A DNA stretch of 64,000 nucleotides from an uncultured Gemmatimonadota bacterium (GTDB lineage: Bacteria > JAAXHH01). This document shows positions 1,241 to 53,218 of the stretch, piece after piece. Location: NCBI GenBank assembly GCA_951812955.1, contig OX638340.1:1312001-1376000 (forward strand). Direction: 5' to 3'. A program made the position numbers and the translations under genes. The notes under the pieces were generated by a model. That model did no database searches, had not been told where the DNA came from, and was given only the letters and a program-made list of their open reading frames with translations. Numbering within the stretch: position 1 is the first letter of the stretch; the number at the start of each line of letters is the position of its first letter.

Positions 1241-1381
1241 TACCGGAAGGTCCGTGCACGACGTATCTTGCGAGTGGGCGGGCGCGCTAATAACAGCGGT
1301 TCGAGGACTGCAGAAATGGAGGATGCATCGCGTATGTCCGCATCGGAGAGCAAGTCGGCATCGGCCCCACGTCCCATCCGC

Positions 1382-2434
1382 ATGGAACCGGATCGCGTGA
1401 CGCGGATCATGGACCTCGTCTTCACGCGTCTGGGCCTGGAATGCGACGAAAGAAAGGTGGTCGTCGAGCGGCTCATGGAGGCCTCCCTTTCCGGGTACCA
1501 CTCCCACGGCGTGATGCGGATAACCATGTATACGGAAGGCATTCGCGTCGGCAATATGATCCCGGGCGCGAAGCTGGACGTCCTGGGTGAAACGGTCTCC
1601 ACGCTGCACCTGGACGCCAACAAGGGCATGGGGCCCTGGACGGCCACCGAGGCCATGAAGCGCGCGGTGGGCAAGGCCGAGGCAACGGGTATCGGTTGCG
1701 TGAGCGTCGTGAACGCCAATGATGTCGCGCGGCTGGGCGGATACGTGGAACAGCCGGCAAAAGACGGTTACATCGCCCTGCTGATGGCCAACGACGCCGG
1801 CGGCAATCCCTGCGTGGCGCCATGGGGCGCGACCTCACCCCTGATGAGCACAAACCCTATGGCCGTCGGTATTCCCCGGAAAGGCGGCGACCCGATCCTC
1901 ATCGATATCTCCACGGGGGTTTCTTCCGAGGGACGGGTCAAGATGCTGCGCAACCGGGGCCAGGCGGTACCCGACGGCTGGCTGATTGACGGAGATGGAC
2001 GGACCACGACGGATGCCGAAACCTACTTTTCAACGCCCAGGCAGGCAGCACTCCTGCCACTGGGCAGCCTGATCGCGGGACACAAGGGGTTCGCGCTGAG
2101 CATACTGGTCGACGTGCTGACTGGTGGCCTGAGCGGCGCGGGCTGCAGCGGCCGGTCGCCGGACGACCTCGACGAGAATGCCCTGTTCATCCTCGTCATC
2201 GACCCCGACAAGTTTGGTTCCAGGTCCGCCTTATCCGCAGAAGTGGACCGGCTCGCTGAGAGCATCAAGGGCGCACGCAAGGCACCCGGAGTCGACGAGA
2301 TCCGTGTGCCCGGCGATGGAGCCCGCAGCGAACGGGAGCGGCAACTGAAACAGGGTATTGAAATCGATCCGCCTGTCTGGTCCTCCATACAGGAAATCAT
2401 GGACGAATTGGGGATTGATCAGGACGGCCTGTAA
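1382..2434 (+). CDS. Ldh_2 family malate/L-lactate/pyrroline-carboxylate dehydrogenase
   Basis: The ERLMEASLSGYHSHGVMRI motif is typical of the Ldh_2 family. The family length (~350 aa) favours start M39 (1382) over M1 (1268); start choice is uncertain. Confidence 0.7.
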   Translation: MEPDRVTRIMDLVFTRLGLECDERKVVVERLMEASLSGYHSHGVMRITMYTEGIRVGNMIPGAKLDVLGETVSTLHLDANKGMGPWTATEAMKRAVGKAEATGIGCVSVVNANDVARLGGYVEQPAKDGYIALLMANDAGGNPCVAPWGATSPLMSTNPMAVGIPRKGGDPILIDISTGVSSEGRVKMLRNRGQAVPDGWLIDGDGRTTTDAETYFSTPRQAALLPLGSLIAGHKGFALSILVDVLTGGLSGAGCSGRSPDDLDENALFILVIDPDKFGSRSALSAEVDRLAESIKGARKAPGVDEIRVPGDGARSERERQLKQGIEIDPPVWSSIQEIMDELGIDQDGL

Positions 2435-2464: not shown

Positions 2465-4402
2465 TCAATAACCGCTGTTCCCTAACCTGACACCGATGTA
2501 GCCGGTCATGCCCACGGTTCCGTATCCCAGGATTTCCTCGTACTCCGCATTGAGCAGATTGTCGATCCTTCCGAATAACTGGATGTTCGGTGTGACCTTC
2601 CAATTGGCGGCCACATTCACGATCCCGTAGCCATCCAGCGTTACCGGTGTGGCGGGCCAGGTCGAGAAGTCGTTGTCCCTTCGCTCCCCCGAAAAACGGA
2701 AACTCAGGTTCAGATCTACGCCCTGCCGTACTCGCTGATCAAGGACGATCCCGCCGCTGTGCCTCGGCCGTCTCAATAACTGCTCATCCGACTCATGGTC
2801 CTTCGAATCGGTCAAAGTATAGTAGGCACGCAGGGAAGTTCCCGCGATTCCCACATACCGTCCGGTCAACTCCAACCCCTTGCTTGTGGCCTTGAACACG
2901 TTCTTGTAACTGGATGTTTCGCTGTCCCACCCGACCATATTGTCGAAGGTATTGTCGAAATAGGTCACGCCGGCCACCAGCTTCTGATCGGCCAGGTACT
3001 GCTCCAGCCCCGCTTCCCAGCTCTTGCTGGTCCCGGCCTGGAGCGTGGAATCACCGAAGGAAGAATGCAGTTGAAACAGTGACGGCGCCTTGTAACCCGT
3101 ACCGTAGGCGCCTTTGATCCTGATTCCCGACGCTTCGAAGTACGCGTTTGGCGCGATGCTGTAGGTGACTTTAGAACCGTACCGGCTGTGATGATCGGCT
3201 CGCACGCCAAGGGTTGCAAACAGCGTATTGCCATACTGCAGCAACTCCTGCAGATAAGCACCGGTCATCCTTGCGGATCGGCGATCGAACTTGCTCGGGA
3301 ATCGGCCCCTTGATTCTGATTCTCCCTGTTCCGTTTCGGTTTCGGCGCCGAATACGAGCGTATTCCCGCCAGACAGCATCAGCGTGTTCTGCCAGTCTAT
3401 TTTGTGCAACCGCGCGTAGAACGTGGAGTTCGAAGCCGTTTCCTGGTTCTCGTCCACCGGATTGTCGTCTTCCCTGCTGTGATCGACGAGGCTATATCCC
3501 AGGGTCTGCTTCCATCGCTGCGACCACAATTCGAGGGTGGCCGAGGGACGGACAAACAGTTGCCTGGAGGAGTTTACCCGATTGGGATCGTCCCCATCGG
3601 GACCGGCTCCATTATCGATATCGGCCCGGCCATCCGTGAAACGAAACGTGAGATCGACCGAAGCATTCGCGGCGGGCGTCGCCCCGAAGCGTCCACCCAC
3701 CGTGGTGTTTCGATAGCCGTCTTCTTCCTGGTTCCCCAGGGCATTCGCTGAAATACCCCGAGCGTTCAGGAAGGAGCCGTCGATCGCATACTGGTAACTG
3801 TCCGTTCCGCCATTCAATCCCGCCCGGCTTCGAAACGTACCCAGGGCGCCGCCCTCGAAGGATGCCCCGATCTTTGGCTTACCCTCACCGCGCTTCGTAA
3901 TGATGTTCACGACCCCCGCGATGGCGTCCGACCCGTACAGTGTACTCTGGGACCCGTACAGCACCTCGATACGTTCTACCTGGTCGACGGTCAGATGCGC
4001 CGGGCTGTAGCCGCGACCCGGAGACATGGCATCGTTGACCTCGATTCCATCGATCAGAAACAGGGTGTAGGACGATTCGGCACCGCGAAGAAAAACAGAC
4101 GCGTTATTACCCGTGCCGCCAGCCTGTGCCATGCTCAAACCGCCCACGTCGCGCAGCACGCCGGCGACCGTGTTCTGGCTGCTGCGTTCGATATCGTCGG
4201 CGGTGATTACGGCGATCGAGCTCGACACCTGCCGCAAGGGTGTTTCGATTTTCGCAGCGGTTACGACAACGGCATCCAGAATGTATCTGGGTTCCTGGTC
4301 CACCGGGTCCTCCGGGTCCGGTGAATTCTGCGCAAATCCTGGCGCTGCGGACAGCAGGTAAAAACAGAGCACGGCTTTAATCGCATGTGGTATGTGTTTC
4401 AT
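2465..4402 (-). CDS. btuB: TonB-dependent outer-membrane receptor, BtuB-like (candidate vitamin B12 transporter)
   Basis: Signal peptide present. The plug region resembles E. coli BtuB (…VVTAAKIETPLRQVSSSIAVITADDIER…VFLRGAESSYTLFLIDGIEVND…). GGGAGG RBS before ATG 4402. Preceded by a cobalamin-riboswitch-like leader. Confidence 0.7.
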   Translation of the reverse strand: MKHIPHAIKAVLCFYLLSAAPGFAQNSPDPEDPVDQEPRYILDAVVVTAAKIETPLRQVSSSIAVITADDIERSSQNTVAGVLRDVGGLSMAQAGGTGNNASVFLRGAESSYTLFLIDGIEVNDAMSPGRGYSPAHLTVDQVERIEVLYGSQSTLYGSDAIAGVVNIITKRGEGKPKIGASFEGGALGTFRSRAGLNGGTDSYQYAIDGSFLNARGISANALGNQEEDGYRNTTVGGRFGATPAANASVDLTFRFTDGRADIDNGAGPDGDDPNRVNSSRQLFVRPSATLELWSQRWKQTLGYSLVDHSREDDNPVDENQETASNSTFYARLHKIDWQNTLMLSGGNTLVFGAETETEQGESESRGRFPSKFDRRSARMTGAYLQELLQYGNTLFATLGVRADHHSRYGSKVTYSIAPNAYFEASGIRIKGAYGTGYKAPSLFQLHSSFGDSTLQAGTSKSWEAGLEQYLADQKLVAGVTYFDNTFDNMVGWDSETSSYKNVFKATSKGLELTGRYVGIAGTSLRAYYTLTDSKDHESDEQLLRRPRHSGGIVLDQRVRQGVDLNLSFRFSGERRDNDFSTWPATPVTLDGYGIVNVAANWKVTPNIQLFGRIDNLLNAEYEEILGYGTVGMTGYIGVRLGNSGY

Positions 4403-4494
4403 CTTGCCTCCCGATATGGTAGATGGTTCGGTGCCTGCAAATTGACGACGCGCATTGGGGTCCATCAGGTCGTTGATTCAGATCGATCTCCTTT

Positions 4495-4860
4495 AAATAA
4501 AAAATCCCCGTACCTGAACGTTGTCAGATACGGGGATGCCGTTTGTCATCCTCGGAATACGGCCACTTGCAGATTACGCCCCAATGAATATACTACGGGA
4601 CAAAAACGCCTGGCGGCCGTACTTACGATTATCCATGTACACCGGACGACTTCAGTCCACGGAAGTCCCGATGAAAACTATGGGCAGGTCGGTCTTCTGG
4701 CTTCCGGATCGATCTACTCGCCGCGCCTTCCCATTCCCGGAGGAACAGTGGCTCGAGCACTATGGCTCTTGATGCGGTTTTCGTCCCCGGTCACAGCGAC
4801 GGGTCCGCGACGGATTCGCACCGTCTTCCCAACTTCTCACCTGCTCCTGTCAAGATAGTA
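4495..4860 (-). ncRNA. candidate cobalamin (B12) riboswitch with terminator hairpin (4505-4536, followed by T6ATTTA on the minus strand)
   Basis: On the minus strand, in order: GGTGCGAATCCGTCGCGGACCCGTCGCTGT (4822→), GCCACTG (4752→4746), GGGAATGGGAAGGC (4722→4715), B12-box-like AGCCAGAAGACCGACCTGCC (4692→4673), then a stem-loop TCCCCGTA…TACGGGGA plus a U-tract. This matches the order of conserved blocks in cobalamin riboswitches. Confidence 0.55.
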
Positions 4861-5006
4861 CCGTTTCGGGGTGAGATCAATCGAAAACTGCGGATTACCT
4901 TAAGGTCGCAGCAAAACTGCTACGTGAGCTACTGGGAAGTGTAATCCTTGATGCGAGGGAGGATTGGTCCGGAGGCGTTCTGGAATCCGCATACAAGCGT
5001 CAATAA

Positions 5007-5762
5007 TTATGACACTTCGATAAGTATCCTGCAATGATCGCTGGGACCCCATTCTTCCGGCTTGTTCAGTGCCGTTGTTCTGATGGAATTCTTCATGCTT
5101 CGTGAAGCAAACACGTAATCCAGCTGCCTGGTGGCCGTCGCAGGTTTTTGACTGGTATGATAGTATGTGGGACCCTGGGGGCCTATCATGGGCAGACCAA
5201 TTGATGACATCCTGTCGAATACTGCTTTCTTGCGGGTCTTCCAGTATTCGTTGCTTCCATCGCCATCCATCACAGTTGTATCTCCAGCCGCGATCATCCT
5301 GAAACTGTTCTTCCTGCCTATAAGCAGCGAGATGTCCGATATGATGCGATGGATCGACGTGTCTACTAGATCACGGCTTTTAAGGCCCGATGATGGATGA
5401 TATGCCTCATACTGGGGACAGAATGACACTACATGAATCGGCCAGTCCCGGAATTTGCCTTCAAGAGGGGTCACAACGGCCGCGGACAGGCATCCCGGAT
5501 GACTGGACTGTATATCATCCAGATAACACACCTTAACCCTGTCGGATGTTTTTACTATAGCACATCTGGATCGTGCTTTGCCCCGACTATCTGGTCTAAG
5601 TGGGTCCTTTTTGTAGTATGGCGCAGGATCCACTTCAATTCTGCCAGCCACATCCTTTGGCGGTTTATAGCCTTCCTGGAGCAGGACAATATCTACGTCC
5701 AGATCAGGCAAGGATCTCCATGCCGCCCTGCGATGCCCGATATTCCAGCAGACCAGTTTCAT
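5007..5762 (-). CDS. endonuclease/exonuclease/phosphatase (EEP, DNase I-like fold) family protein, copy 1
   Basis: N-terminal …CWNIG…DIVLLQE… and C-terminal …EWGPSDHCRI… motifs of the EEP superfamily. No signal peptide. Low-GC region. GGAG RBS before the second ATG (5762); the ORF track starts at 5783. Confidence 0.7.
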   Translation of the reverse strand: MKLVCWNIGHRRAAWRSLPDLDVDIVLLQEGYKPPKDVAGRIEVDPAPYYKKDPLRPDSRGKARSRCAIVKTSDRVKVCYLDDIQSSHPGCLSAAVVTPLEGKFRDWPIHVVSFCPQYEAYHPSSGLKSRDLVDTSIHRIISDISLLIGRKNSFRMIAAGDTTVMDGDGSNEYWKTRKKAVFDRMSSIGLPMIGPQGPTYYHTSQKPATATRQLDYVFASRSMKNSIRTTALNKPEEWGPSDHCRILIEVS

Positions 5763-5798
5763 CCAGATCTCCAAACGGTCCATCTGAAGATCGCAGCA

Positions 5799-6179
5799 CT
5801 ATGGCTTGTCGTCAAAGTACGGAGAGCAGTTTTGTTTCCAGGCCAGCCAGGTCCGACTGCCGTCGGAAGCCACAATGACGTGATCTTTGAACTTTTCCGG
5901 TATATTGGTGATTTTGCCTTGAGGGCCTTCGCCCGTTACGAACAGATCGTCCAGCGTCGTCCTTTCATGAAACAACCTGCTCTTTCCTTCGTGCACGGCG
6001 TCCTTTATTTCTGAAATCACCTGTCTGAATTCTTCTTCTATATCATCGGTTATTGTTTCCCTTTCCGACATTGTCCTTGTCTCCTTGTAGGCTTCCCACA
6101 ACCGCTTGACATGTTTGGCATACCTAAAATACTTCGCAAGCTCCAGAAGCAGTTCGAGGTATTCGGTCATGACCTGCAA
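5799..6179 (-). CDS. hypothetical protein (126 aa), co-oriented 15 nt upstream of EEP copy 1
   Basis: Clean charged, helical-looking ORF in a low-GC segment. TTG start at 6179, or ATG at 6170. No recognisable domain. Confidence 0.45.
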   Translation of the reverse strand: MQVMTEYLELLLELAKYFRYAKHVKRLWEAYKETRTMSERETITDDIEEEFRQVISEIKDAVHEGKSRLFHERTTLDDLFVTGEGPQGKITNIPEKFKDHVIVASDGSRTWLAWKQNCSPYFDDKP

Positions 6180-6285
6180 TGCCTGATTTAAAGGATACCC
6201 AATGCCGCCCTGAATTCAAAGGTATTCCCGATAAACATCCAAACAGCACCCTTGTACCTGGCATAGCCTCAGTTTTCTACCACAA

Positions 6286-7941
6286 TCACCACCTGGCGTT
6301 TAACTGCAAAATCCATCGTGTTTCGACGAGGGGAACCTTGAGTTGATCGTAGCGGGTCTGACGTGTCCGCGTATAACGCACCACGGTGGAAACGCCCGAT
6401 CCGACCGGTCCGTACAGCAGGATAACCCACCTATCGCGGCGGTTGGATCGAAATAGGGAGGTCGATTCCTCCGGCTCGGGTAACCCGGCCAACGTGTATT
6501 CCCACTGGGCGGACAGGCTGACACGGTCCCTGGACCGGTATCGCATGTACAATCGCAGATCGTGCGCGGGATTCAAACCGGACTGGCCGCGTCGCTCGTA
6601 GCGGGCCCGCCACTGGACCCGGGCGGGCAGCCGCCAGGCCATCTGACCTCGCCAGGATTCCAGCAGAACCGATCCATCAATTCTATGCGCATCCATCTCA
6701 CGGCGCCACACGCCCGAGAGTACGAGGCCGCCGTTCATTCTTCGGCGAAATCGGAAGGTGCTGCGCCGGTACAACTCCAAGTTGGTCAACCGGGGTTCAA
6801 CGCTCAGTTGCAGCGTGGTCCGGCGGTCCGGCCGCCAGCGCAGGAGCAGGCTCTGCCACGTCCGTTCGGACTTCTCGATGAACCGGGCATTCGGCTGACG
6901 GTGGATAGTCAGTCCCCCTTCCACGCGCTCCATGCTCCAGATCATGCCCCCCTGAACGGTCTGGTATCCCTCATCGTCGATGGCCATTTCACCGAACAGA
7001 TTCGTACCGCCGAAGAGCAAGTCCAGGTCCACGCCAGCACGTACGCGACCTTCCGTGTGAATGGCCGAGATACCGATCAGTCCACTGTTTCGCTTCCAGT
7101 CCAGGCGGCCCCCAGGTTCCCATTTTCCCGATGCGGTCCGTGAGAGGATCCCCGTCAGGCTATAACCTGGGCGGGCAATCCGCAGCGCCACGCCACGACG
7201 GGCGCCGGATACGTAGGTCGTTCTTACGGGTCTCAGTCCCCGGACACGGCGTTTCACGGACGCACTTAGACTGGCCGTCGAAGGCCGGATCGAATGACTG
7301 CGCCACACCAGTCCCTGGCCGAAATCCACTTCGTAGTATCCCAGGATCAACATGCGGGATGCATCCGCCTGACCCAGTTCCAGGTATCCCGACCGCCACC
7401 GGGTTTCACCGTCTCGATCCCGGCGTTCCCCCCGTCCGCCCAGTCTGAACGACCGTCCGAGTTCAATGTCCCCCTGCAGACCGAGGATGCCGTTTCCCGT
7501 CGCTTCCGGACGGTCGGTGCGGCTTCGCGACAGGCGCCCGCGACCCGCGGTTTTAAAGGTGCGGACACCGTCCGCCCGAATAAAGGGACTGATTCGGGAT
7601 ACAAGAGCCTCCGTGAAACCTGGAATTCGAACGAGTTCCCCCACGCTGGTGAAGGGGCCGAGCTTTTCACGCCAGGTGACGACGGCTCCGGCGAGCGCCG
7701 GCGTGATCCACGGCAGTTGTTCCAGCTCGGTCCGGCTGGCCCGGTTGATATCGAGCGGGTCGCGCCGCAAGGAGACCAGCAGCGCGATGTCCTCCGGATC
7801 GATGTCTGCTGCTTCCCGGTCGATCAGTGCATCAATGGAGTAGTCTGGTTCCTGCCCCGACCGTTCTTCAGGAGAGAAAATCATCATTGCTAGGTACACG
7901 GAGACCAGAATTCGCCATGCGTGGTACATGAACCGGCTCAT
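6286..7941 (-). CDS. hypothetical secreted/outer-membrane protein with N-terminal helix-hairpin-helix (ComEA-like) segment
   Basis: Signal/TM segment present. An HhH-like stretch (…INRASRTELEQLPWITPALAGAVVTWREKLGPFTSVGELVRIPGF…) is followed by a long R/W/Y-rich beta-rich region. Start overlaps the stop of the upstream gene. Confidence 0.45.
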   Translation of the reverse strand: MSRFMYHAWRILVSVYLAMMIFSPEERSGQEPDYSIDALIDREAADIDPEDIALLVSLRRDPLDINRASRTELEQLPWITPALAGAVVTWREKLGPFTSVGELVRIPGFTEALVSRISPFIRADGVRTFKTAGRGRLSRSRTDRPEATGNGILGLQGDIELGRSFRLGGRGERRDRDGETRWRSGYLELGQADASRMLILGYYEVDFGQGLVWRSHSIRPSTASLSASVKRRVRGLRPVRTTYVSGARRGVALRIARPGYSLTGILSRTASGKWEPGGRLDWKRNSGLIGISAIHTEGRVRAGVDLDLLFGGTNLFGEMAIDDEGYQTVQGGMIWSMERVEGGLTIHRQPNARFIEKSERTWQSLLLRWRPDRRTTLQLSVEPRLTNLELYRRSTFRFRRRMNGGLVLSGVWRREMDAHRIDGSVLLESWRGQMAWRLPARVQWRARYERRGQSGLNPAHDLRLYMRYRSRDRVSLSAQWEYTLAGLPEPEESTSLFRSNRRDRWVILLYGPVGSGVSTVVRYTRTRQTRYDQLKVPLVETRWILQLNARW

Positions 7942-7942
7942 T

Positions 7943-8752
7943 TCAGCCGAATTCCATGGTGACAGAAAACCGGTGCGTGATGCCTAGCAGGGAGTGAGAC
8001 GACAGGGCGTAATCCGTTTTCACGCGGCCCTTTTCCAGGCCCAGGCCAACATAGAACAGTGACGGATCGGTCGTCAGACCCGCCCGGATCGTTACAACCT
8101 CGGCCAGGTGAAACTCCTGCCCCACCCTCGTGGTGTAGCCGTGGCGGGGGTGGTGGTCGAACTGGAACGAAACCGTCAGGCGGTCTCCCGTCCTGCTCAG
8201 CCCCGCCTGGATGATACGCGGATTCTCAGTTGCCGTGCCGGACTCCTTGAGAAGTGCGACGGCATGGGCCATCGCGCCGAGACGAAGTTGATACGGGAGA
8301 TCTATGAGGACACCCGCGTCCAACGCGACGGCGGAAGCGCCTTCGTAGTTTTTGACTGCAAGGCTCAATCGGCGAAGCGTAAGTCCCGCATGGAATCTCC
8401 TGCTGATGGATCGTCCGTAGGAAAGGCCGAACACACCCTCCCGGTACAACGAGCTTCCGAGACCGTGGTAGAACAGGCCGATGTGGCCCAGGACGGTAGG
8501 TGCGACACCGGAGATGGCCACCTGGGCCAGCTCTTTCATGCCGAATAGCCGCGTGTAGTGGCTCGTCAATGCGAACCGGCCGACCTGGGGCGTACCGCCC
8601 GGATTGAGGAAGGCCGCTTCGGCGTCATCCGCGACGGCTACGAAAGCGCCCGCCATGCCGACCGGCCTCGCACCGGCAAAAACTGGTTCGAATGCGCTCC
8701 AGGCCGTACCTGGAGTCAATAGCAGTAACAACAGCGGTAGTATCCGTTTCAT
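7943..8752 (-). CDS. putative outer-membrane beta-barrel protein (FadL/PorV-like N-terminal motif)
   Basis: Signal peptide MKRILPLLLLLLTPGTAWS. Motif GMAGAFVAVADDAEAAFLNPGG. Ends with aromatic residues (…TMEFG). GGGAG RBS before ATG 8752. Confidence 0.45.
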   Translation of the reverse strand: MKRILPLLLLLLTPGTAWSAFEPVFAGARPVGMAGAFVAVADDAEAAFLNPGGTPQVGRFALTSHYTRLFGMKELAQVAISGVAPTVLGHIGLFYHGLGSSLYREGVFGLSYGRSISRRFHAGLTLRRLSLAVKNYEGASAVALDAGVLIDLPYQLRLGAMAHAVALLKESGTATENPRIIQAGLSRTGDRLTVSFQFDHHPRHGYTTRVGQEFHLAEVVTIRAGLTTDPSLFYVGLGLEKGRVKTDYALSSHSLLGITHRFSVTMEFG

Positions 8753-8920
8753 TTGGGCTCCCATCTCGAAATGATCGACTTGTTTCTCTATTCAAAGCGC
8801 CACACTTCATCAGTCGGAAGCACATCATGAAATCTCGTTTTAGACTGCCATTAATCGGCCTGAACCCGCTCCAATCTCGTATTGACTCCCACCCCTGATC
8901 CCGTATATTGTGGATGGTGC

Positions 8921-8994
8921 GCCCCAGTAGCTCAGTTGGACAGAGCATCGGACTTCTAATCCGAGGGTCGCAGGTTCGAATCCTGCCTGGGGTA
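8921..8994 (+). tRNA. tRNA-Arg (anticodon TCT)
   Basis: Cloverleaf read by eye: acceptor GCCCCAG/CTGGGGT, D-arm GCTC-AGTTGGACA-GAGC, anticodon arm TCGGA-CTTCTAA-TCCGA, T-arm GCAGG-TTCGAAT-CCTGC, discriminator A. CCA is not encoded. Confidence 0.8.
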
Positions 8995-9054: not shown

Positions 9055-9128
9055 GCGTCCGTAGCTCAGCTGGATAGAGCAACTGACTTCGGATCAGTAG
9101 GTCGGGGGTTCGAATCCCTCCGGGCGTA
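9055..9128 (+). tRNA. tRNA-Arg (anticodon TCG; anticodon assignment by eye)
   Basis: GCGTCCGTAGCTCAGCTGGATAGAGC… closely matches the bacterial tRNA-Arg backbone. Anticodon arm ACTGA-CTTCGGA-TCAGT, T-arm GGGGG-TTCGAAT-CCCTC. Acceptor stem has two G·U pairs. Confidence 0.7.
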
Positions 9129-50665: not shown

Positions 50666-53218
50666 ATTTCCGGGGCTGCGCAGCCCCGGCCTCATTGAAG
50701 CGCCGCCATATCGATCCGGATAGAAGGTTGTCCGTTCGATTTCCGGGGCTGCGCAGCCCCGGCCTCATTGAAGCACCATATGCCGGCGCGGTGATTGGGT
50801 ATTTGCGGCACGATTTCCGGGGCTGCGCAGCCCCGGCCTCATTGAAGCATCCGTCATCATAAAACCCCCGTAAATGGCCATAGGGATTTCCGGGGCTGCG
50901 CAGCCCCGGCCTCATTGAAGCCGTCGTCGCGATGGCGGTGTTCGGTGGCAACCTGTGATTTCCGGGGCTGCGCAGCCCCGGCCTCATTGAAGCCACCAGA
51001 ATACCCATGCGGCCGATAACGAGGTGCTGCTTATTTCCGGGGCTGCGCAGCCCCGGCCTCATTGAAGCCGATCCTTCCGCGAAGTGTCCGGCCTGCACCG
51101 CTCCATTTCCGGGGCTGCGCAGCCCCGGCCTCATTGAAGCATGAGTTGACGCTCCGAGATACCCAGCAGCGTCGCGAGATTTCCGGGGCTGCGCAGCCCC
51201 GGCCTCATTGAAGCCGGAAGATGTTGCTCCCCTGGCCGTCGGTGAAGAAGTTATTTCCGGGGCTGCGCAGCCCCGGCCTCATTGAAGCCGGAAGATGTTG
51301 CTCCCCTGGCCGTCGGTGAAGAAGTTATTTCCGGGGCTGCGCAGCCCCGGCCTCATTGAAGCGAGAAGATCTCCCCGGATAACGTGGACGACCCCACCGG
51401 CATTTCCGGGGCTGCGCAGCCCCGGCCTCATTGAAGCCGGTTGGCCTCCGGGTCCGGCTCGGTTTCGTGCGGTTGATTTCCGGGGCTGCGCAGCCCCGGC
51501 CTCATTGAAGCTTGGAAGCCATGATGGCCTTGGTGCCCAGGGCGAGCGCCATTTCCGGGGCTGCGCAGCCCCGGCCTCATTGAAGCTAGGCCTCCTCGCT
51601 GGCGAATCCCATCTTGTACCACTATTTCCGGGGCTGCGCAGCCCCGGCCTCATTGAAGCTCGTACACGTGGGCGGTGGTCAGCACCACCTTGGAACCGGA
51701 TTTCCGGGGCTGCGCAGCCCCGGCCTCATTGAAGCGTCGGTTTCGTCCTCGGTGTCGCGGTGACGACGCTCTATTTCCGGGGCTGCGCAGCCCCGGCCTC
51801 ATTGAAGCATCAAACACACCCTTCAAGCGTAAACATAGGCCCTGGATTTCCGGGGCTGCGCAGCCCCGGCCTCATTGAAGCCCATCAGTGTGGTCGACTG
51901 CTGCCTGCGTGTGCTGGAGAAATTTCCGGGGCTGCGCAGCCCCGGCCTCATTGAAGCCCATCAGTGTGGTCGACTGCTGCCTGCGTGTGCTGGAGAAATT
52001 TCCGGGGCTGCGCAGCCCCGGCCTCATTGAAGCATGCACATCTCGAAGTCACAGGACCAGACACAGGTGACGATTTCCGGGGCTGCGCAGCCCCGGCCTC
52101 ATTGAAGCCACGGAAGGCAGCCAGGGTCGCACCGCTGGCACCCAGATTTCCGGGGCTGCGCAGCCCCGGCCTCATTGAAGCCAAGCAATCGAACGCAAGC
52201 ACAAGCGGACGCTCGACCATTTCCGGGGCTGCGCAGCCCCGGCCTCATTGAAGCTAAGGGTATTGTCCAGGACGATGACCTGAATGAATATATTTCCGGG
52301 GCTGCGCAGCCCCGGCCTCATTGAAGCCTGTGCAAAACGCGCGGTACTTGAAATTGGCCCGTGTCATTTCCGGGGCTGCGCAGCCCCGGCCTCATTGAAG
52401 CGTGATTGATCAATTTCGAGATTAACCGTTATTTCCTCCATTTCCGGGGCTGCGCAGCCCCGGCCTCATTGAAGCAGGAACACGTGGAAGAGGTAGGAGC
52501 AGACGCGAAACCATTTCCGGGGCTGCGCAGCCCCGGCCTCATTGAAGCGAAGCTCCTGTTGAGTCTGTGAACGACTGGACGGGTTAATTTCCGGGGCTGC
52601 GCAGCCCCGGCCTCATTGAAGCGATGCAATCAGAAACCTCCTTCATCGTCGCATCCTGATATTTCCGGGGCTGCGCAGCCCCGGCCTCATTGAAGCGATT
52701 CATCGTTGGCGTTGTCGTCCACCTCCTCGGCGAGGTATTTCCGGGGCTGCGCAGCCCCGGCCTCATTGAAGCCAAGTTGACAGACATAGGAATCCAGCCT
52801 TACGCGTCCACATTTCCGGGGCTGCGCAGCCCCGGCCTCATTGAAGCTCTGAAAAAGACCTGTTGCTCCACCCCATCGAGGACGTATTTCCGGGGCTGCG
52901 CAGCCCCGGCCTCATTGAAGCGCCTTGTCGCGGATAGCCCTTGCCTGCTCCTCCAAAGCCATTTCCGGGGCTGCGCAGCCCCGGCCTCATTGAAGCCTCC
53001 AACACCAGCAACAGCACGGCAGGGTCCCTGGGCATTTCCGGGCTGCGCAGCCCCGGCCTCATTGAAGCGAATCTCCCTCCAGCGGGTTGCAGTCCTTCAG
53101 GTCCTGGGTTTCCGGGGCCGCACGGCCCCGGCCTCATTGAAGCGAGATCCCCCCGGACCCTGGTAAGGCGTCGGCGGGCAGTGTTTCCGGGGCCGCTCGG
53201 CCCCGGCCTCATTGAAGC
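50666..53218 (+). CRISPR. CRISPR array of about 35 repeats (36-bp ATTTCCGGGGCTGCGCAGCCCCGGCCTCATTGAAGC) with 34 spacers of 36-40 bp. Leader is 50457-50665. A further degenerate partial repeat lies near 53255.
   Basis: Repeat units were counted directly. The palindromic core is CCGGGGCTGCGCAGCCCCGG. The 3' end …ATTGAAGC is typical of type I-G/I-U repeats. Pristine repeats are leader-proximal (next to cas2). The last three are degenerate: one has a single-G deletion at 53034, and two read GTTTCCGGGGCCGC(A/T)CGGCCCC at 53108 and 53183. Confidence 0.95.

Follow-up and report, generated by a model that had tools for sequence, protein, structure and literature searches.

[quoted passage not shown] For env8 and related switches the geometry described is a kissing loop in which L13 carries a bulge, and the consensus reported for L5 is UCCCG (PMC10327014). 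In the repressing metE corrinoid riboswitch of P. (Priestia) megaterium a relay of P13, antiterminator and terminator has been experimentally established, while in the activating cobT corrinoid riboswitch of Alkalihalobacillus halodurans P13 shares sequence with the 5' arm of the terminator; among the switches surveyed, the spacer between P13 and the terminator measures 0-82 nt (PMC10327014).

The window analysed here, a stretch of DNA of 64 kb, contains a single match to the Cobalamin family RF00174, at 4859-4670 on the minus strand. It was aligned by cmscan over the full model (positions 1-189) with 94.8 bits and an E-value of 2.5e-22, about three times the gathering score of 31.5 bits. The sequence-only reading of this DNA had seen a cobalamin riboswitch-like leader at this place and had left the decision to a minus-strand search with RF00174, which thus came out clearly in its favour. 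The motifs on which it had relied were all found on the minus strand in the order claimed, and their coordinates were checked. The features of the aptamer are as follows.

4670-4859, minus strand: cobalamin riboswitch aptamer, with the bounds of the RF00174 match; the transcribed part would be about 4846-4684
4839-4844, minus strand: P1 5' strand GCAGGU, exact complement of 4689-4684
4822-4812, minus strand: L4 motif GGUGCGAAUCC, from the sequence
From 4808, minus strand: motif GCGGACCCGUCGCUGU, from the sequence
4796-4808, minus strand: P5/L5, GCG-GACCCGU-CGC, from the covariance-model alignment, unvarying in the clade except in L019
4803-4800, minus strand: L5 CCCG, proposed kissing-loop partner
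4755-4768, minus strand: extra small hairpin GAGC-CAUAGU-GCUC within the P6 peripheral extension, a 14-nt insertion relative to the model
4752-4746, minus strand: GCCACUG (J6/3), from the sequence
4732-4725, minus strand: motif GGGAAGGC, from the sequence
4702-4683, minus strand: B12-box stretch AGCCAGAAGACCGACCUGCC, from the sequence
4690-4702, minus strand: B12 box AGCCAGAAGACCG, from the sequence and the covariance model; its CCG (4692-4690) pairs with UGG 4831-4829
4684-4689, minus strand: P1 3' strand ACCUGC (second GACC plus UGC), aligned without indel by the covariance model and the same in 18 leaders

The core sequences expected of RF00174 (L4 GGUGNNAAUCC, J6/3 GCCACUG, GGGAAGGC and the B12 box AGCCAGnAGACC) are all present and do not vary across 18 orthologous leaders. 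The aptamer is of the RF00174 class, Cbl-I-like, with a P6 peripheral extension and without P2, and from its sequence it can be expected to bind a corrinoid. It resembles the E. coli btuB riboswitch in the full-length RF00174 match, in the core motifs GGUGCGAAUCC, GCCACUG, GGGAAGGC and B12 box, in the P6 peripheral extension, in its location, within the 5' leader and on the strand of a gene for a BtuB-type receptor, and in a C-rich L5 opposite a loop rich in G that follows closely on P1. It differs in the absence of P2, in the additional 14-nt hairpin of the P6 extension, whose stem covaries in the clade (GAGCC/GGCUC vs GCGCC/GCGC), and in its host, which belongs to an uncultured Latescibacterota/Gemmatimonadota-type lineage. 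Concerning P2, the covariance-model alignment has no such hairpin between P1 and P3, where 7 nt (GAGAAGU, 4838-4832) replace about 23 nt of the model (an 18+5-nt P2); P2 is present in the distant homologue L017. It is unnecessary for reaching the gathering score and was not taken as defining membership of RF00174.

The B12 box had also been described as carrying a 4-nt GACC insertion. The repeat itself is there, while the reading of it as an insertion does not hold, as cmscan aligns box and P1 without any indel: the first GACC serves to close the core, where CCG 4692-4690 pairs with UGG 4831-4829, and the second ACC opens the 3' strand of P1. The tandem GACCGACC is unvarying in 18 of 18 orthologous leaders. 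Since the distant homologues L016 and L017 carry AGCCAGAAGACCUGCCC at this position, a 4-nt duplication may have occurred in the past, and the second GACC is better read as accommodated at the start of P1 than as disrupting the B12 box. The two strands of P1 (GCAGGU 4844-4839 and ACCUGC 4689-4684) are perfectly complementary and both unvarying, so that covariation evidence does not arise for this helix.

Upstream of P1 a candidate promoter was recognised.

4875-4880, minus strand: -35 box TTGATC, from conservation and inference; TTGAnCT, 17 nt ahead of the -10 box, is (nearly) unvarying among the 18 orthologous leaders
4852-4857, minus strand: -10 box TATCTT (TAnnnT), with T44, A45 and T49 unvarying in alignment A1

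The whole arrangement TTGAnCT-N17-TAnnnT is unvarying or nearly so in the 18 leaders, although the -35 box misses the 9/12 threshold of the consensus promoter scan. It suggests a promoter of the sigma-70 type, from which transcription would start at about 4846-4844, directly at the beginning of P1.

The gene that follows the leader is the one the sequence-only reading had proposed to annotate as a B12 transporter.

2465-4412, minus strand: BtuB-like TonB-dependent receptor of 645 aa, with Shine-Dalgarno sequence GGGAGG at 4412-4407, ATG at 4402 and stop codon at 2467-2465

Everything expected of a TonB-dependent receptor was found in this protein: Pfam domains Plug (PF07715, 85 bits) and TonB_dep_Rec_b-barrel (PF00593, 126 bits), a signal peptide (MKHIPHAIKAVLCFYLLSAAPGFAQ) and, close to the mature N-terminus, the TonB-box-like sequence DAVVVTA. 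Its top NCBIfam family is TIGR01779, 'TonB-dependent vitamin B12 receptor', with 328.9 bits, and TIGR01779 and NF007926 rank far ahead of all other families, with CirA, the first one outside the B12 group, at 150 bits. These scores stay below the equivalog cut-offs for BtuB (328.9 vs 599.7 bits for TIGR01779 and 274.3 vs 836 bits for NF007926). Among solved structures the closest are chains of BtuB from E. coli, and the alignment with them runs from end to end (residues 43-632 to 6-584, E 3e-56). The receptor is thus like E. coli BtuB (PDB 1NQE and related) in its Plug and 22-strand-barrel family domains, in this alignment, in the TonB-box-like DAVVVTA and in being a riboswitch-controlled gene, and unlike it in scoring 274-329 bits against NCBIfam equivalog cut-offs of 600-836. 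The transporter annotation is therefore favoured by the best family, the best structure and the riboswitch context, and falls short on the equivalog score; from sequence and context, 'BtuB-like, corrinoid receptor by context' seems the annotation that can be defended. The gene neighbourhood makes the receptor monocistronic, because a convergent Ldh_2 gene lies at 1271-2434 on the plus strand. A longer reading frame of the receptor from ATG 4465 was dropped, since the extension is not conserved and ATG 4402 has both a Shine-Dalgarno sequence and a signal peptide. The plus-strand frame at 4385-4858 (157 aa), which lies over the riboswitch and has no Pfam family, was treated as spurious.

In Latescibacterota/Gemmatimonadota-type metagenome-assembled genomes, 17 of 17 orthologous loci keep the promoter, the aptamer, a P13-like hairpin, a variable hairpin and the terminator. 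The aptamer scores 90-99 bits in each of them, is nearly unvarying and lies 263-430 nt before the gene; it was also found upstream of seven of nine more distant homologues, one of them from Aeromonas, in one or two copies (three of the seven have them in tandem). The btuB-like regulatory arrangement claimed from the sequence is thus borne out, with the order riboswitch, terminator, receptor kept in 17/17 loci. The aptamer thus lies in cis, in the leader of a B12-related gene and on the same strand, and we regard the leader as almost certainly a cobalamin riboswitch controlling the receptor gene.

Downstream of the aptamer we recognised the following elements, which together would form the expression platform.

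4633-4683, minus strand: P13-like extended hairpin, RNAalifold consensus
4683-4680 with 4636-4633, minus strand: P13 basal helix, CCAU with AUGG, RNAalifold
4673-4668 with 4645-4640, minus strand: P13 middle helix, CAUCGG with CCGGUG, RNAalifold
4666-4662 with 4653-4649, minus strand: P13 upper helix, ACUUC with GAAGU, RNAalifold
4661-4654, minus strand: loop L13, CGUGGACU, RNAalifold
4631-4640, minus strand: candidate antiterminator a' (GUACAUGGAU) in the 3' side of P13, on weak evidence; it agrees with the terminator 3' arm GUACGGGGAU in 8/10 positions
4556-4623, minus strand: variable spacer hairpin of about 68 nt, free in sequence, with the structure of its outer stem kept
4531-4554, minus strand: local alternative hairpin b:c, with b CGAGGAUG at 4554-4547, loop ACAAACGG and CAUCCCCG at 4538-4531, overlapping the terminator 5' arm
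4495-4537, minus strand: predicted intrinsic terminator, from a terminator scan, with stem AUCCCCGUAUCUGA / UCAGGUACGGGGAU at 4537-4504, loop CAACGU and U tract at 4503-4495
4488-4494, minus strand: AAAGGAG directly after the terminator, with GGAG unvarying in 18 leaders; the next 80-250 nt are unalignable

The helices of this platform are paired in 98% of the alignment cells, vs 28-39% in slid controls. For P13 the figure is 98-99%, its middle helix shows a compensatory change, and in the upper helix, compared over five lineages, both sides changed in four of the six pairs while the loop CG-N-GG stayed constant around a variable N. This loop is complementary to L5 CCCG, and the contact nucleotides themselves never vary informatively. 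Lying opposite L5, it matches the bulged kissing-loop geometry of env8-type switches (PMC10327014), and L5 and L13 may form a kissing loop.

The spacer hairpin behaves differently, as its sequence changes freely: the outer 9-bp stem is paired in 93.8% of cells with UA/CG and AU/GC exchanges, the hairpin folds at -27 to -36 kcal/mol in each orthologue, L002 and L012 carry insertions in it, and it is missing from the distant homologues. A second RNA family was looked for in the 135-nt spacer. An Rfam search of 4350-5050 at E<=10 returned nothing above threshold, and the matches seen (trpB motif with 18.6 bits, where the gathering score is 59, mir-657 and petD intron) are noise, so that the spacer as a degenerate second aptamer was dropped.

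The predicted terminator has a stem of 14 pairs, seven of them G-C, and a 6-nt loop followed by UUUUUAUUU, and it folds at -23.1 kcal/mol. Across 19 sequences 98.9% of its cells are paired, vs 25-51% in slid controls; three pairs changed on both sides, and one pair was seen as UA, UG, GC and CG across the alignment. The module is detectable by nhmmer also in L015, L016 and L017. The sequence-only reading had placed a hairpin with a U tract about 95 nt before the receptor start; this agrees with a U tract ending at 4495 and an ATG at 4402, a gap of 92 nt. We regard it as highly likely that the output element is this predicted terminator.

Control mainly at translation, with the Shine-Dalgarno sequence sequestered in the manner of E. 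coli btuB, would make the hairpin and U tract incidental or a pause site. It has its precedent in btuB and env8 (PMC10327014), and in the distant homologues L016, L017 and L024 a hairpin that resembles P13 and has the loop GCGG does adjoin the Shine-Dalgarno sequence. We nevertheless consider it quite improbable for this locus. Within the clade, the RNA that separates the terminator from the Shine-Dalgarno sequence (80-250 nt) cannot be aligned and varies in length, with repeat insertions in L002 and L012, and no conserved element able to pair with GGGAGG was found there in 18 leaders, which argues for control at the terminator and not at the ribosome-binding site. Moreover the terminator is conserved with compensatory changes. 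While E. coli btuB acts largely at the ribosome-binding site, the Shine-Dalgarno sequence here is 270 nt away from the aptamer and the conserved output element is a predicted terminator.

The conservation of the platform is also relevant to another explanation, in which the terminated leader (about 4846-4495, some 350 nt) would itself be functional in trans, as a riboswitch-derived small RNA or as a corrinoid sponge. Such a role would explain why the platform (145 nt; segments 4683-4625 and 4555-4488) is as unvarying as the aptamer although the receptor proteins are only 74-83% identical, and it could account for the unvarying AAAGGAG at the 3' end. However, switching sequences under several alternative pairings would also be expected to be conserved, no target or partner was identified, and the element always lies in cis before the receptor gene. 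A metagenome scan for independent copies with the P13 apex pattern CTTCCGNGGANTGAAG gave 120 loci, none of them matched by the nhmmer profile of the leader; since the pattern specifies only 14 bases, these are chance matches. Action in trans is in our opinion extremely unlikely.

AAAGGAG itself may represent a Shine-Dalgarno sequence, either as a relic or on standby, or it may form part of a mini-ORF. In L017 it is the receptor's own Shine-Dalgarno sequence. A conserved upstream ORF after AAAGGAG was dropped as a candidate, as the start is mostly CUG and the frames run from 0 to more than 30 codons, with indels. Pairing of GGAG 4491-4488 with CUCC upstream of the terminator was also dropped, because CUCC varies (UUCC, CCGC, CCCGG, CACC) and GGAG does not. 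In a milder and in our view unlikely variant of the regulation, AAAGGAG would drive a start-stop mini-ORF or a standby ribosome site; if true, it would couple read-through to translation at the distant receptor start.

We then consider it likely that the leader belongs to the mRNA of a monocistronic BtuB-like receptor and works as a terminator-based cobalamin riboswitch that represses uptake. After P1 the layout would be P13 (4683-4633), the spacer hairpin (4623-4556), the alternative hairpin (4554-4531), the terminator (4537-4495), about 80 nt of unconstrained RNA and finally the receptor. With a corrinoid bound, P1 would close and L13 would dock on L5, where C4661, G4660, the bulged U4659, G4658 and G4657 would pair with CCCG 4803-4800. 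P13 being locked in this way, its 3' side could not hold the 5' arm of the terminator; the terminator would form, transcription would stop before the receptor gene and B12 would repress uptake. Without ligand, a' (4640-4631) or b (4554-4547) would pair with AUCCCCG(UAU), and RNA polymerase would read through.

This scheme is close to that of P. megaterium metE (PMC10327014), where a P13 with internal loops also comes right after P1, L13 is complementary to L5, a terminator lies downstream and a segment within the 3' half of P13 resembles the 3' arm of the terminator (here GUACAUGGAU vs GUACGGGGAU). Differences concern the distance from the base of P13 to the terminator, about 95 nt here vs the 0-82 nt reported (PMC10327014), the second, local copy of the 3' arm (CGAGGAUG), which folds into a separate hairpin with the 5' arm of the terminator, and the predicted energies, which do not favour the antiterminator on the 3' side of P13. 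There are thus two antiterminator candidates, a' and b, as the 3'-arm sequence has two copies upstream, and because of this the regulatory sign, like the identity of the antiterminator strand, can only be inferred, with repression as the sign we propose. The match of a' (8/10) is reached by 7% of shuffles and is only marginally unusual; a' would pair with AUCCCCGUAU at 8 of 10 positions (duplex of -6.2 kcal/mol), with one compensatory change, in L009. Hairpin b:c has a pairing probability of 0.95-0.97 in a transcript ending before the terminator 3' arm and is predicted likewise in L015, L016 and L017; it is unvarying, so that covariation is silent about it. Pairing of the P1 3' strand with CAGG of the variable hairpin as antiterminator was dropped, as this motif is not conserved (CCGG in six leaders).

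By nearest-neighbour energies, the state with P13 and the local b:c hairpin (-50.3 kcal/mol) is preferred to the a':c state (-40.0 kcal/mol), regardless of the state of P1. An RNAduplex comparison of every leader segment with the terminator 5' arm returned long, loop-ridden duplexes of -18 to -23 kcal/mol, with no discrimination among them. Counter to the repression model, these energies resolve no ligand-dependent antiterminator in silico, and the distance from P1 to the terminator, 145 nt, is beyond the P13-to-terminator spacers of PMC10327014. Also counter to repression, the chain of exclusive pairings formed by P1/P13, 4685-4668 with 4555-4538, b:c and the terminator, taken at face value, predicts activation.

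The same riboswitch could accordingly be imagined as an ON switch: with ligand, P1 and P13 would hold 4685-4668, CGAGGAUG (4554-4547) would be free and b:c would block the terminator, while without ligand 4685-4668 would pair with 4555-4538 and the terminator would form by default. The hairpin CGAGGAUG-ACAAACGG-CAUCCCCG would then be a ligand-stabilised antiterminator, either via its ACGG loop or via a release of its 5' strand dependent on the holo aptamer; we judge both the ON switch and this role of the hairpin to be unlikely. In their favour, b:c mainly occupies the 5' arm of the terminator as long as the 3' arm is still to be transcribed, and it is kept, loop A(A/U)ACGG included, in homologues of other phyla; the loop ACGG is complementary to L5 CCGU; the helix of 4685-4668 with 4555-4538 appears in the minimum-free-energy fold, where it overlaps three P1 nucleotides; and once the terminator is present the two states have practically the same energy (-66.2 vs -67.0 kcal/mol). 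The precedent is A. halodurans cobT (PMC10327014), which is similar in that the 3' side of b:c is the terminator 5' arm and the ACGG loop could pair with L5. In contrast to cobT, however, the canonical place of P13 is held here by another hairpin, the first one, which also carries the CG-N-GG loop, and the gene under control encodes an importer, which one would not expect to be activated. The hairpin b:c is weak compared with the terminator (-6.8 vs -23.1 kcal/mol), and the long-range helix is almost without covariation support. In the distant homologues a second aptamer, with a P13 (loop GCGG) adjacent to the Shine-Dalgarno sequence, follows the same terminator module, an arrangement consistent with two repressing units one after the other. 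To our knowledge, no characterised riboswitch ahead of a B12 uptake gene activates, and an importer induced by its own cargo would make little physiological sense. If true, the ON switch would provide the first case of a cobalamin riboswitch that activates an uptake gene.

It should be noted that the class, the gene association and the general mechanism are already textbook knowledge, and that the finding is confirmatory and not surprising. For the organism, the receptor at 2465-4402 (minus strand) gains a predicted functional label, that of an outer-membrane transporter of the BtuB type which responds to corrinoids, in a Latescibacterota/Gemmatimonadota-like lineage that is uncultured, and this would imply that the organism senses and imports B12-type cofactors. 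For the riboswitch family, the locus adds a well-conserved, long, multi-hairpin and terminator-based cobalamin expression platform outside the Firmicutes, where such platforms were dissected, and the 18 orthologous leaders, together with the distant homologues carrying single or tandem aptamers, could help in understanding the link between the L5-L13 kissing loop and terminators.

The sequence-only reading had proposed a cobalamin riboswitch on the minus strand at 4495-4860, and the motifs on which it relied are all present there in the order claimed, as read from the sequence. Searching the window with RF00174 (the Rfam Cobalamin riboswitch aptamer), we obtained a match at 4859-4670 (minus strand) that spans model positions 1-189 and scores 94.8 bits (E 2.5e-22), where the gathering score is 31.5; the whole 64 kb gave no other RF00174 match. 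The hairpin and U tract were also recovered, by a terminator scan, as a terminator-like site at 4537-4504. The 4-nt GACC insertion proposed for the B12 box is better read as the start of the P1 3' strand: the covariance model aligns this region without any indel, CCG 4692-4690 pairing with UGG 4831-4829 and ACCUGC 4689-4684 forming the 3' strand of P1, exactly complementary to GCAGGU 4844-4839. Two distant homologue loci (L016 and L017) read GACCUGCCC at the GACC site, and from such sequences GACC may be a past duplication, now used as P1 and fixed in the clade.

Features of the leader and of the genes that follow it are:

4880-4875 and 4857-4852, minus strand: promoter TTGAnCT-N17-TAnnnT, invariant in the orthologous leaders
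4755-4768, minus strand: extra 14-nt hairpin GAGC-CAUAGU-GCUC, a P6-extension insertion relative to the Rfam model
4683-4633, minus strand: extended hairpin (RNAalifold and per-sequence folds)
4640-4631, minus strand: a', GUACAUGGAU, on the 3' strand of the extended P13
4685-4668 with 4555-4538, minus strand: long-range helix in minimum-free-energy folds
4623-4556, minus strand: variable hairpin (RNAalifold and per-sequence folds)
4554-4547, minus strand: b, CGAGGAUG, just upstream of the terminator
4537-4504, minus strand: terminator-like site, 14 pairs (7 G-C), 6-nt loop, then UUUUUAUUU
4412-4407, minus strand: GGGAGG, Shine-Dalgarno sequence before the receptor ATG
ATG 4402 to stop 2467-2465, minus strand: receptor gene, the next same-strand gene after the leader
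1271-2434, plus strand: Ldh_2-family gene, convergent, after the receptor gene

The receptor begins with a signal peptide followed by a TonB-box-like DAVVVTA and carries Plug and TonB-dependent-receptor barrel domains. Its top two NCBIfam models, TIGR01779 (328.9 bits) and NF007926 (274.3 bits), are both B12-receptor equivalogs, with scores below the curated cut-offs and far over that of CirA (150 bits), and among solved structures it is closest to E. coli BtuB chains, to which it aligns over the whole length (E 3e-56). Since the next gene is convergent, the receptor gene is monocistronic. Upstream of the leader lie three minus-strand ORFs (5007-8764), of 258 aa with a weak endonuclease/exonuclease/phosphatase match, of 551 aa with a ComEA-like helix-hairpin-helix domain, and of 273 aa, PorV/PorQ-like, the last of which may point to type IX secretion in the background. 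The window also holds two plus-strand tRNA genes (8921-8994 and 9055-9128; 75.3 and 68.1 bits against RF00005) and a plus-strand CRISPR array at ~50738-53218, whose 37-nt repeats match RF01330 (CRISPR-DR16), at least 17 of them over the gathering score, at a spacing of ~72-75 nt.

Scanning genomes with the receptor as query gave 26 loci. Seventeen are orthologues (74-96% identity) whose MAGs bear the label Latescibacterota, Gemmatimonadota or just 'bacterium', and every one has a single RF00174 aptamer that scores 90-99 bits and lies 263-430 nt before the gene. The nine distant homologues (29-43% identity) come from Thermodesulfobacteriota, Acidobacteriota, Bdellovibrionota, Aeromonas and others; seven have an upstream aptamer, and the other two have next to no upstream sequence in the data. 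Three of these seven carry tandem pairs:

L015: aptamers at 2452-2631 and 2762-2955
L016: aptamers at 2465-2665 and 2758-2947
L024: aptamers at 2277-2458 and 2648-2810

In all three, P13 and a terminator follow the first aptamer, and in L016 and L024 a short GCGG-loop hairpin adjoining the Shine-Dalgarno sequence follows the second; L017 has a single aptamer and then the same kind of hairpin by its Shine-Dalgarno sequence.

The anatomy of the leader was read from an alignment of 18 orthologous leaders. From the promoter position, transcription is predicted to start at ~4846-4844, at the first P1 base pairs, so that the outer portion of 'P1' in the Rfam model probably lies outside the transcript. 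The aptamer is nearly invariant, with changes only in loops and in the extra hairpin, whose stem covaries among orthologues. In the covariance-model alignment P2 is missing, GAGAAGU taking the place of ~23 model nucleotides.

Past P1, conservation stays at the aptamer level for 55 nt, drops for ~68 nt and returns for ~70 nt, which take in the terminator and an AAAGGAG box. Counted on the 18-leader alignment, the platform helices are paired in 98% of cells, a figure that falls to 28-39% once their 3' partners are slid; compensatory changes are seen in the terminator, in the variable hairpin (outer stem) and in the first hairpin (middle helix). With three distant homologues added, in which nhmmer recognises the terminator module, the terminator is 98.9% paired, one pair occurring as UA, UG, GC and CG. 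Between terminator and Shine-Dalgarno sequence the RNA cannot be aligned and differs in length; at alignment columns 520-680, L002 (~1660-1830) and L012 (~2800-2960) have tandem-repeat insertions there, of CACACCGTGAGATCAC-like units and of GGATCGCCGACATCGAACAT three times, showing that this stretch tolerates large changes. Such RNA argues against a conserved structure sequestering the Shine-Dalgarno sequence, and control via the terminator is well supported.

AAAGGAG (4488-4494, minus strand) directly follows the terminator U tract, ~80 nt upstream of the receptor's own Shine-Dalgarno sequence, and is invariant in 18/18 leaders. It is followed after 6-7 nt by CUG, UUG or AUG, with a start-stop TTG TAA in five loci (L005, L006, L007, L013, L014) and ATG AAA TGA in L012; in L017 the same AAAGGAG serves as the receptor's Shine-Dalgarno sequence. 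An upstream-ORF idea and several candidate pairings were dropped on conservation grounds. A low-threshold Rfam scan of the spacer turned up no further RNA family, RNAduplex scans were uninformative, and a metagenome pattern scan yielded nothing useful, the pattern being too short.

The first hairpin occupies the P13 position of characterised cobalamin riboswitches. Compared with the counterparts after the first aptamer in L015, L016, L017 and L024, four of the six stem pairs at its apex are altered on both sides, while the loop CG-N-GG (N = U, C or A) is retained. L5 reads (A/G)CCCG in these RNAs (published consensus UCCCG, PMC10327014), allowing four base pairs between CCCG and CG-N-GG with N bulged, a geometry already described for kissing loops in which L13 has a bulge (PMC10327014). 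We thus infer an L5-L13 kissing contact, whose nucleotides show no informative variation.

Concerning the coupling to the terminator, its 3' arm GUACGGGGAU is copied in a' and b. The former is identical at 8/10 positions (equalled in 7% of shuffles), its pairing shows one compensatory change (L009), and similar mimicry occurs in L015, L016 and, within the linker, L024. It fits the logic of the P. megaterium metE switch, the experimentally dissected precedent, where the kissing loop stabilises P13 (PMC10327014); the state pairing a' with the terminator 5'-arm partner, c, lies ~10 kcal/mol above the alternative in energy. The latter copy pairs with CAUCCCCG (4538-4531) in a local hairpin. Its predicted pairing probability with c is 0.95-0.97 in transcripts ending before the terminator 3' arm, and the hairpin is also predicted in L015-L017; at -6.8 kcal/mol it is weak beside the terminator (-23.1 kcal/mol) and, because the sequence is invariant, offers no covariation. 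Both copies are candidates for the antiterminator strand.

In the folding model the long-range helix would sequester b and, with the terminator formed, is isoenergetic with the P13 state (-67.0 vs -66.2 kcal/mol). If the holo aptamer preferred P13 to this helix and b:c were the antiterminator, the switch would be activating. We consider this very improbable, because activation is without precedent among uptake genes, the long-range helix lacks covariation, and distant homologues carry, behind the same module, a second aptamer whose P13 (loop GCGG) adjoins the Shine-Dalgarno sequence, as fits serial repression. Most likely, B12 would repress receptor expression through the terminator.

The conserved output element is a terminator, unlike the ribosome-binding site of E. 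coli btuB. The platform is longer than those of the terminator-type switches of Firmicutes and includes two mimics of the 3' arm as well as a spacer hairpin that evolves freely. Stems of 6-17 bases for P13 and spacers of 0-82 nt are known (PMC10327014), and the features found here stay within the expression-platform diversity described before. On every testable criterion the leader belongs to the cobalamin riboswitch class, and its association with a BtuB-type receptor is the classic one.
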